Below, piece by piece: positions 59,246 to 59,432 of a DNA stretch of 64,000 nt; positions within the stretch are counted from its first letter, which is position 1; each line of letters opens with the position of its first letter. The position numbers were made by a program, and so were the translations under genes. The DNA is from Escherichia coli (lineage in GTDB: Bacteria; Pseudomonadota; Gammaproteobacteria; Enterobacterales; Enterobacteriaceae): the NCBI RefSeq assembly GCF_003334405.1, contig NZ_QOWM01000001.1; one strand, given 5' to 3'. The notes under the pieces are model-generated. The model saw only the letters and a list, made by a program, of their open reading frames with translations. It was not told the DNA's origin and ran no database searches.

Positions 59246-59401
59246 TAAAAGGTGTGTTACAGGGCAGAAATTTCCTGTCCTGTAACATTTGATGAGCGCA
59301 AAGAGAATGACCGGTTTGTGAATGTAATTTTATGAATTTAAATGGTTTTATCTTTCAGTAGAAACTTCAAACGTTCATCAAACACTCAGGTTATTTCCTC
59401 A

Positions 59402-59432
59402 AGGGCAGATTATTTTCTGCCCTTTTTTATTG
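59402..59432 (+). terminator. Strong plus-strand intrinsic terminator about 160 nt downstream of fruA
   Basis: AGGGCAG-ATTATTTT-CTGCCCT followed by TTTTTTATT. A weaker hairpin (GTTACAGG...CCTGTAAC, 59256-59286) lies immediately after the fruA stop. Confidence 0.7.

Follow-up and report, generated by a model that had tools for sequence, protein, structure and literature searches.

A probable fruBKA intrinsic terminator closing a 183-nt, Escherichia-specific 3′ untranslated region

Results

The analysed window is a 64,000-nt stretch of Escherichia coli DNA (contig NZ_QOWM01000001.1, assembly GCF_003334405.1), in which the genes fruK, fruA, psuK, psuG and psuT follow one another, all on the + strand. 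fruA, the last gene of fruBKA, encodes the fructose IIBC protein of the PTS and occupies 57554–59245, as read from the list of open reading frames and from the K-12 annotation of a 100% identical sequence; the next gene, psuK (pseudouridine kinase), lies at 59668–60609 according to the same list and to the annotation. Between the two genes is a stretch of 422 nt for which neither the PGAP annotation nor that of NC_000913.3 gives any feature. The 501 bases around the terminator described below are 100% identical to those of E. coli K-12 MG1655, where the region is on the minus strand and where an NC_000913.3 coordinate is obtained by subtracting the window coordinate from 2318964. In E. coli strain Z1323CEC0015, psuK is annotated as a frameshifted pseudogene (locus L003, 3029–3971).

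Two hairpins follow fruA. Hairpin 1 (59254–59288, found by folding and as inverted repeat I1) begins 8 nt past the fruA stop and consists of a 14-bp stem, with arms at 59254–59267 and 59275–59288, and a 7-nt loop; it is directly followed by UUUGAUG and thus has no U tract. The second, at 59401–59428 on the + strand, is the fruBKA intrinsic terminator, recognised by consensus scan, folding, Term-seq and orthology. Its arms AAGGGCAGA (59401–59409) and UCUGCCCUU (59416–59424) form a stem of 9 bp, 5 of them G-C pairs, around the 6-nt loop UUAUUU, and a U6 tract at 59423–59428 precedes AUUGUU (ATTGTT in the DNA). It folds at −15.5 kcal/mol and ranked first in a 2-kb scan that gave four terminator-like sites, where 2.0 ± 1.2 are expected by chance. 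Hairpin 1 is the stabler of the two (−21.3 kcal/mol). The first-pass annotation had placed a hairpin and a strong intrinsic terminator after fruA, and both are present at nearly the positions that it gave; its description of the hairpin as weak was mistaken, as hairpin 1 merely lacks a U tract.

The two hairpins are separated by an AT-rich spacer of 112 nt (59289–59400), which exists only in one Escherichia allele, called A below, and is absent from all non-Escherichia loci. The whole stretch of 194 nt has a folding energy of −62.9 kcal/mol (z = −6.1 relative to shuffled sequences), with a predicted long-range stem that pairs 59289–59298 with 59372–59381 of the spacer, and a perfect 10-nt complement (inverted repeat I2) relates hairpin 1 to the terminator, 59261–59270 against 59414–59423. 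No open reading frame of meaningful length lies between the hairpins, as had been noted at the first pass: the region contains two, a 27-aa one with a GTG start that overlaps hairpin 1 and a 52-aa one (59342–59500) that crosses the terminator, and neither is conserved. A small-protein reading was therefore rejected: other E. coli strains carry frameshifted or truncated versions of the 52-aa frame, and L004, a GTDB representative, lacks the start motif of the 27-aa and the 52-aa frame alike.

The terminator coincides with a 3′ end formed in vivo. In the Term-seq data of Adams et al. (2021; PMC7815308, supplementary file 1), an end was called at 2259536 of NC_000913.3 on the minus strand, the flanking string reading GGGCAGATTATTTTCTGCCCTTTTTT up to the end and ATTGTTCTGT beyond it. 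This end was called in the M63-glucose sheet only, that is in one of three conditions, at 28,731 reads on average, and it is labelled 'orphan', a term that in that study denotes only a distance of more than 50 nt to a gene end (PMC7815308). Its position corresponds to 59428 of the window, the last U of the U6 tract, and the fruBKA 3′ UTR measured from the fruA stop to this end (59246–59428, + strand) is 183 nt long. None of the three Term-seq sheets holds any further 2259xxx coordinate, which leaves hairpin 1 without a called 3′ end. fruBKA is known to be regulated by Cra, and Cra repression in LB may account for the restriction of the 59428 end to one condition. A 3′ end seen in glucose minimal medium, not in LB, would thus fit an end derived from fruBKA.

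The same study (PMC7815308, supplementary file 2) lists a Rho-dependent region centred at 2259533 on the minus strand, with a Rho score of 3.5 that is drawn from 800-nt windows and low counts (44/28 reads untreated against 43/97 with bicyclomycin). The centre of this region falls at about 59431 of the window, just past the intrinsic terminator, which indicates that read-through beyond the terminator exists and is limited by Rho. Transcripts that enter the psuK leader and 5′ coding region, either by read-through or from a psuK promoter, appear to be Rho-limited in LB. As a separate observation, a third partial copy of the terminator 3′ arm with its T run (AATCTGCCCATTTT) is present at 59510–59523, 96 nt downstream; it is complementary to 59403–59411, and a match of 9 nt is about the chance level (approximately 0.4 expected in 450 nt).

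Closer to psuK, 59565–59600 holds a tandem direct repeat of 18 nt, TATGAGCACATGTTTAAA followed by TATGAACACATGTTTAAA, each unit of which contains an AACA(C/T)GTGTT-like palindrome. The repeat is located just upstream of, and overlaps, the −35 element of the sole promoter-like site on the + strand, which stands at 59595–59622 in front of psuK. Together with the upstream TTTACTTTAC (59545–59555), the repeat block is kept in the second Escherichia allele (allele B, see below), in Enterobacter asburiae, in K. oxytoca, in Leclercia and in Kosakonia. To judge by its sequence, it looks like a putative paired operator for a regulator of the pseudouridine (psuKGT) genes.

We then examined the sequence 3′ of the stop codon at 80 loci with close FruA relatives, one per GTDB species. 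In several species of Citrobacter, in Enterobacter asburiae, in Klebsiella spallanzanii, K. oxytoca and K. indica, and in Leclercia, a hairpin of the form AAGGGCAGAG-loop-CTCTGCCCTTTTTT stands 13–22 nt past the fruA stop, and the GGGCAGAG-loop-CTCTGCCC-U(n) hairpin of Citrobacter, Klebsiella, Enterobacter and Leclercia is the stem of window 59401–59424. The flank TTTTTTATTGTT that follows the downstream copy, i.e. the terminator, is also found in a Klebsiella locus (L027). By a strict hairpin-plus-T-run criterion, 69 of the 78 non-Escherichia loci show a terminator at most 60 nt from the stop, and in the Escherichia loci, without exception, no terminator comes before +154 to +186. The distance between fruA and psuK is 278–325 nt in E. 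asburiae, K. oxytoca, Leclercia and Kosakonia, where psuK is also the next gene, against 422 nt in K-12. Since the same hairpin is found directly behind fruA in related genera, the terminator is the ancestral fruBKA terminator and not the orphan that the first-pass annotation had taken it for. Moreover, hairpin 1 lines up with the terminators of Citrobacter, Enterobacter and Klebsiella, and the stop codons stay in register. Its core is AGGGCAGAAATTTCCTGTCC, compared with AGGGCAGAGATTTCTCTGCCC in Citrobacter; K-12, L004, E. albertii and two Citrobacter loci all have GGGCAG beginning 16 nt past the stop; and in the multiple alignment K-12, allele B and Citrobacter have their stop codons in shared columns.

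Within Escherichia, the stretch between fruA and the terminator exists as two alleles. Allele A, the K-12 type, is carried by about 4220 of 5426 complete E. coli genomes, and most of these diverge from K-12 by 5–6% across 195 nt; the form present in L004 is a divergent one, 82% identical (approximately 18% divergence). Allele B is found in 1194 of the 5426 genomes (~22%) and in E. albertii; here the hairpin next to the stop (TCATCGGGGC...GCCCCGATGA) leads into a BIME, made up of a REP pair and an AT-rich linker, after which comes GAGGGCAGAGACATCTCTGCCCTTTTT. Its counterparts of window 59246–59432 are at 2575–2800 of L003 (E. coli Z1323CEC0015) and at 3901–4118 of L005 (E. albertii); the terminator stem is the same as in allele A and the last fruA codons are different. 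Each allele occurs in more than one Escherichia species-level lineage, and the polymorphism is therefore either old or moved by recombination. The K-12 spacer is not itself of the REP/BIME kind: it has a median of one place per genome, and NC_000913.3 carries no REP annotation there. We also considered it as a decayed BIME/RIP, on account of a local likeness to the allele B linker, and rejected this origin as unsupported, for global alignments scored no better than shuffles (z values of −1.6 to +1.6).

The constraint on the different parts of the 3′ UTR is uneven. The six allele-A sequences compared all have an identical terminator stem around a variable loop. In hairpin 1, compensation is seen at one pair (A-U / C-G / U-G), and five of its pairs are broken in some strains. 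For the predicted spacer stem 59289–59298/59372–59381, no covariation was found and some strains have lost pairing at three positions, on which grounds its structural conservation was rejected. A working terminator with only weak constraint on the sequence ahead of it would be expected to give this pattern. In E. coli strain 203740, an IS1 is located inside the spacer (L088, 1–400), with the junction at about 59311 and the K-12 match resuming at query base 66, and this suggests that interruption of the spacer is tolerated, at least in this natural isolate.

Discussion

According to these results, the sequence at 59401–59428 is very probably the Rho-independent terminator of fruBKA, closing a 183-nt 3′ UTR that is specific to Escherichia. 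It combines a G+C-rich stem-loop followed by a U tract, a 3′ end formed in vivo and an orthologous position after fruA, and sequence comparison identifies it as the same terminator that stands 13–22 nt past fruA in related genera. We propose that a lineage-specific insertion in Escherichia displaced this ancestral terminator by about 140 nt downstream, and we infer that the insertion was accompanied by a duplication of the hairpin. The extra DNA would now separate the stop-proximal copy from the second one; the downstream copy would have retained the U tract and, beyond it, the ancestral flank, and hairpin 1 would be the relic of the original hairpin, which kept the ancestral upstream context, lost its U tract and no longer terminates. 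RNA polymerase would continue for about 140 nt past hairpin 1 until it reaches the functional copy, the transcript presumably being continuous from fruA to 59428, and the outcome would be a 3′ UTR of 183 nt, structured yet weakly constrained. From what is generally known of such elements, the role of both hairpin 1 and the terminator stem is probably no more than that of a barrier to 3′-to-5′ exonucleases for the fruBKA mRNA, and the terminator would be expected to insulate psuKG from fruBKA transcription.

The first-pass annotation had offered two interpretations of this architecture, and these fared differently. A long structured 3′ UTR is what we find, with 183 nt and a terminator that is used in vivo according to Term-seq; an orphan terminator that marks a candidate 3′-UTR-derived sRNA finds no support. 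It is very unlikely that RNase E cuts the fruBKA mRNA within 59290–59400 to release a terminator fragment that acts in trans with Hfq or ProQ, even if the architecture permits it, with a long UTR, an A/U-rich stretch before the U6 terminator and a real 3′ end at 59428. The transcript end that had been predicted near 59,430 was indeed there, and Hfq-associated reads exist as well. In the RIL-seq re-analysis of Bar et al. (2021; PMC8175672, Table S1), the region, under the name fruA.psuK.IGR, appears in stationary phase only, with 42 chimeric fragments, and in Hfq-CLASH (Iosub et al. 2020; PMC7213987) one chimera joins 59313–59378 to the tRNA glnX. However, the behaviour in RIL-seq is that of a target: all chimeras involve one partner, the sRNA score is 0.001 for a cut-off of 0.1, and the second-in-chimera score (SIC) of −1 means that the region is never in the sRNA position (PMC8175672). 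Moreover, the psuK leader, which itself carries a T6, is an equally possible source of these chimeras, and the lone CLASH chimera pairs with a tRNA. The Hfq datasets, which had been put forward as a check, thus make the fruA–psuK intergenic region at most a minor Hfq-associated target. Conservation and covariation across Enterobacteriaceae, another proposed check, gave a conserved terminator stem, a spacer that is absent outside Escherichia and a spacer stem devoid of covariation. In particular, the sequence 5′ of the terminator, where a seed was looked for, is replaced by unrelated sequence in the ~22% of E. coli genomes with allele B and is absent from the other genera, and so there is no conserved seed. 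An Rfam search of 58800–60000 (E ≤ 10) returned nothing at the gathering threshold and matches at chance level only; the best one on the + strand, DapZ over the terminator (16.2 bits, E = 8.5, for a gathering score of 56), is a chance-level similarity between terminators. Finally, in the collection of papers that was searched, no relevant report tied fruA, psuK or fruBKA to an sRNA or to Hfq.

An independent sRNA gene, with its own promoter in the intergenic region and sharing the terminator at 59401–59428, is hardly credible. AT-rich DNA can harbour weak promoters, and the 3′ end was classed as an orphan by Adams et al.; but this class refers to the distance of more than 50 nt alone, the end was called in M63 glucose only, and the consensus scan gave no sigma-70-like promoter on the + strand in 59246–59400. 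In addition, the terminator is older than the spacer, and in other genera it is the terminator of fruA. The Cappable-seq and SMRT-Cappable-seq supplements hold no entry here, although their listings may be incomplete and this is not evidence of absence. We also consider it unlikely that the 3′ UTR is a cis-acting module, which would either offer a docking place to an sRNA and Hfq and so tune fruBKA stability, or, with the 3′ arm of hairpin 1 pairing with the 5′ arm of the terminator, switch read-through into psuKG. The two hairpins are paralogous and could cross-pair, as the 10-nt complement between 59261–59270 and 59414–59423 illustrates; one hub sRNA touches the intergenic region in RIL-seq; and the Rho-dependent region centred at 59431 (Rho score 3.5) implies that there is read-through to be controlled. 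Yet that score comes from coarse 800-nt windows with few reads, and allele B and the other genera manage without the K-12 spacer. Anti-termination by cross-pairing is possible on paper and energetically inferior, for the cross-pairs are weaker than either hairpin (−21.3 and −15.5 kcal/mol) and hairpin 1 forms first; the duplication alone yields the complementarity. A broader proposition is that the Escherichia-specific fruA 3′ UTR is not inert and gives either a lineage-specific processed RNA ending at 59428 (Hfq/ProQ) or a docking site or sponge for a hub sRNA. The 42 RIL-seq chimeras with one partner would agree with such a docking site or sponge, and we give this proposition a very small chance of being correct. 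If it were true, docking or sponging by the fruA 3′ UTR would link expression of the fructose PTS to stationary-phase sRNA networks, and E. coli lineages would differ in the post-transcriptional control of fruBKA according to whether they carry the AT-rich spacer or the REP/BIME allele. Some RNA-level function of the 3′ UTR is possible, given the compensatory change in hairpin 1 and the presence of the region in the Hfq RIL-seq and CLASH data.

We therefore retain the fruBKA terminator, displaced from its ancestral position, as the explanation of this locus. An intrinsic terminator with its 3′ UTR is an ordinary feature, and the import of our analysis hardly extends beyond annotation: the published 'orphan' Term-seq 3′ end at 2259536(−) is now assigned to the fruBKA operon, a 183-nt 3′ UTR is defined for it, and one sRNA candidate can be dropped. 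A further, small point is evolutionary, namely that an insertion can displace the terminator of an operon and leave a hairpin copy without a U tract behind, and here two old insertion alleles co-exist in E. coli. It also follows that a terminator located far from a stop codon is not by itself evidence of a separate RNA gene.

Comparison with known systems places the locus more precisely. The 3′-UTR-derived, Hfq-dependent sRNAs CpxQ, SroC, MicL, DapZ, GlnZ and MalH/MdoR use the terminator of the parent mRNA and originate in a long 3′ UTR, as would be the case here; unlike them, the fruA 3′ UTR has no conserved seed, no internal promoter and no multi-target RIL-seq signature. A second likeness is with REP/BIME 3′ UTRs. 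In both alleles, an insert is placed between the stop-proximal hairpin and the terminator, as in those 3′ UTRs, and in allele B the insert is itself a REP pair, whereas the K-12 spacer is single-copy and has no significant similarity to the BIME allele. The closest relative is the fruA-proximal terminator of Citrobacter, Klebsiella and Enterobacter, which has the same stem (GGGCAGA...TCTGCCC), a U tract, the same downstream flank and the same place in the gene order. Escherichia differs from these genera in that its terminator is found at +154 to +186 instead of 13–22 nt past the stop, and in that a hairpin devoid of a U tract occupies the original position.
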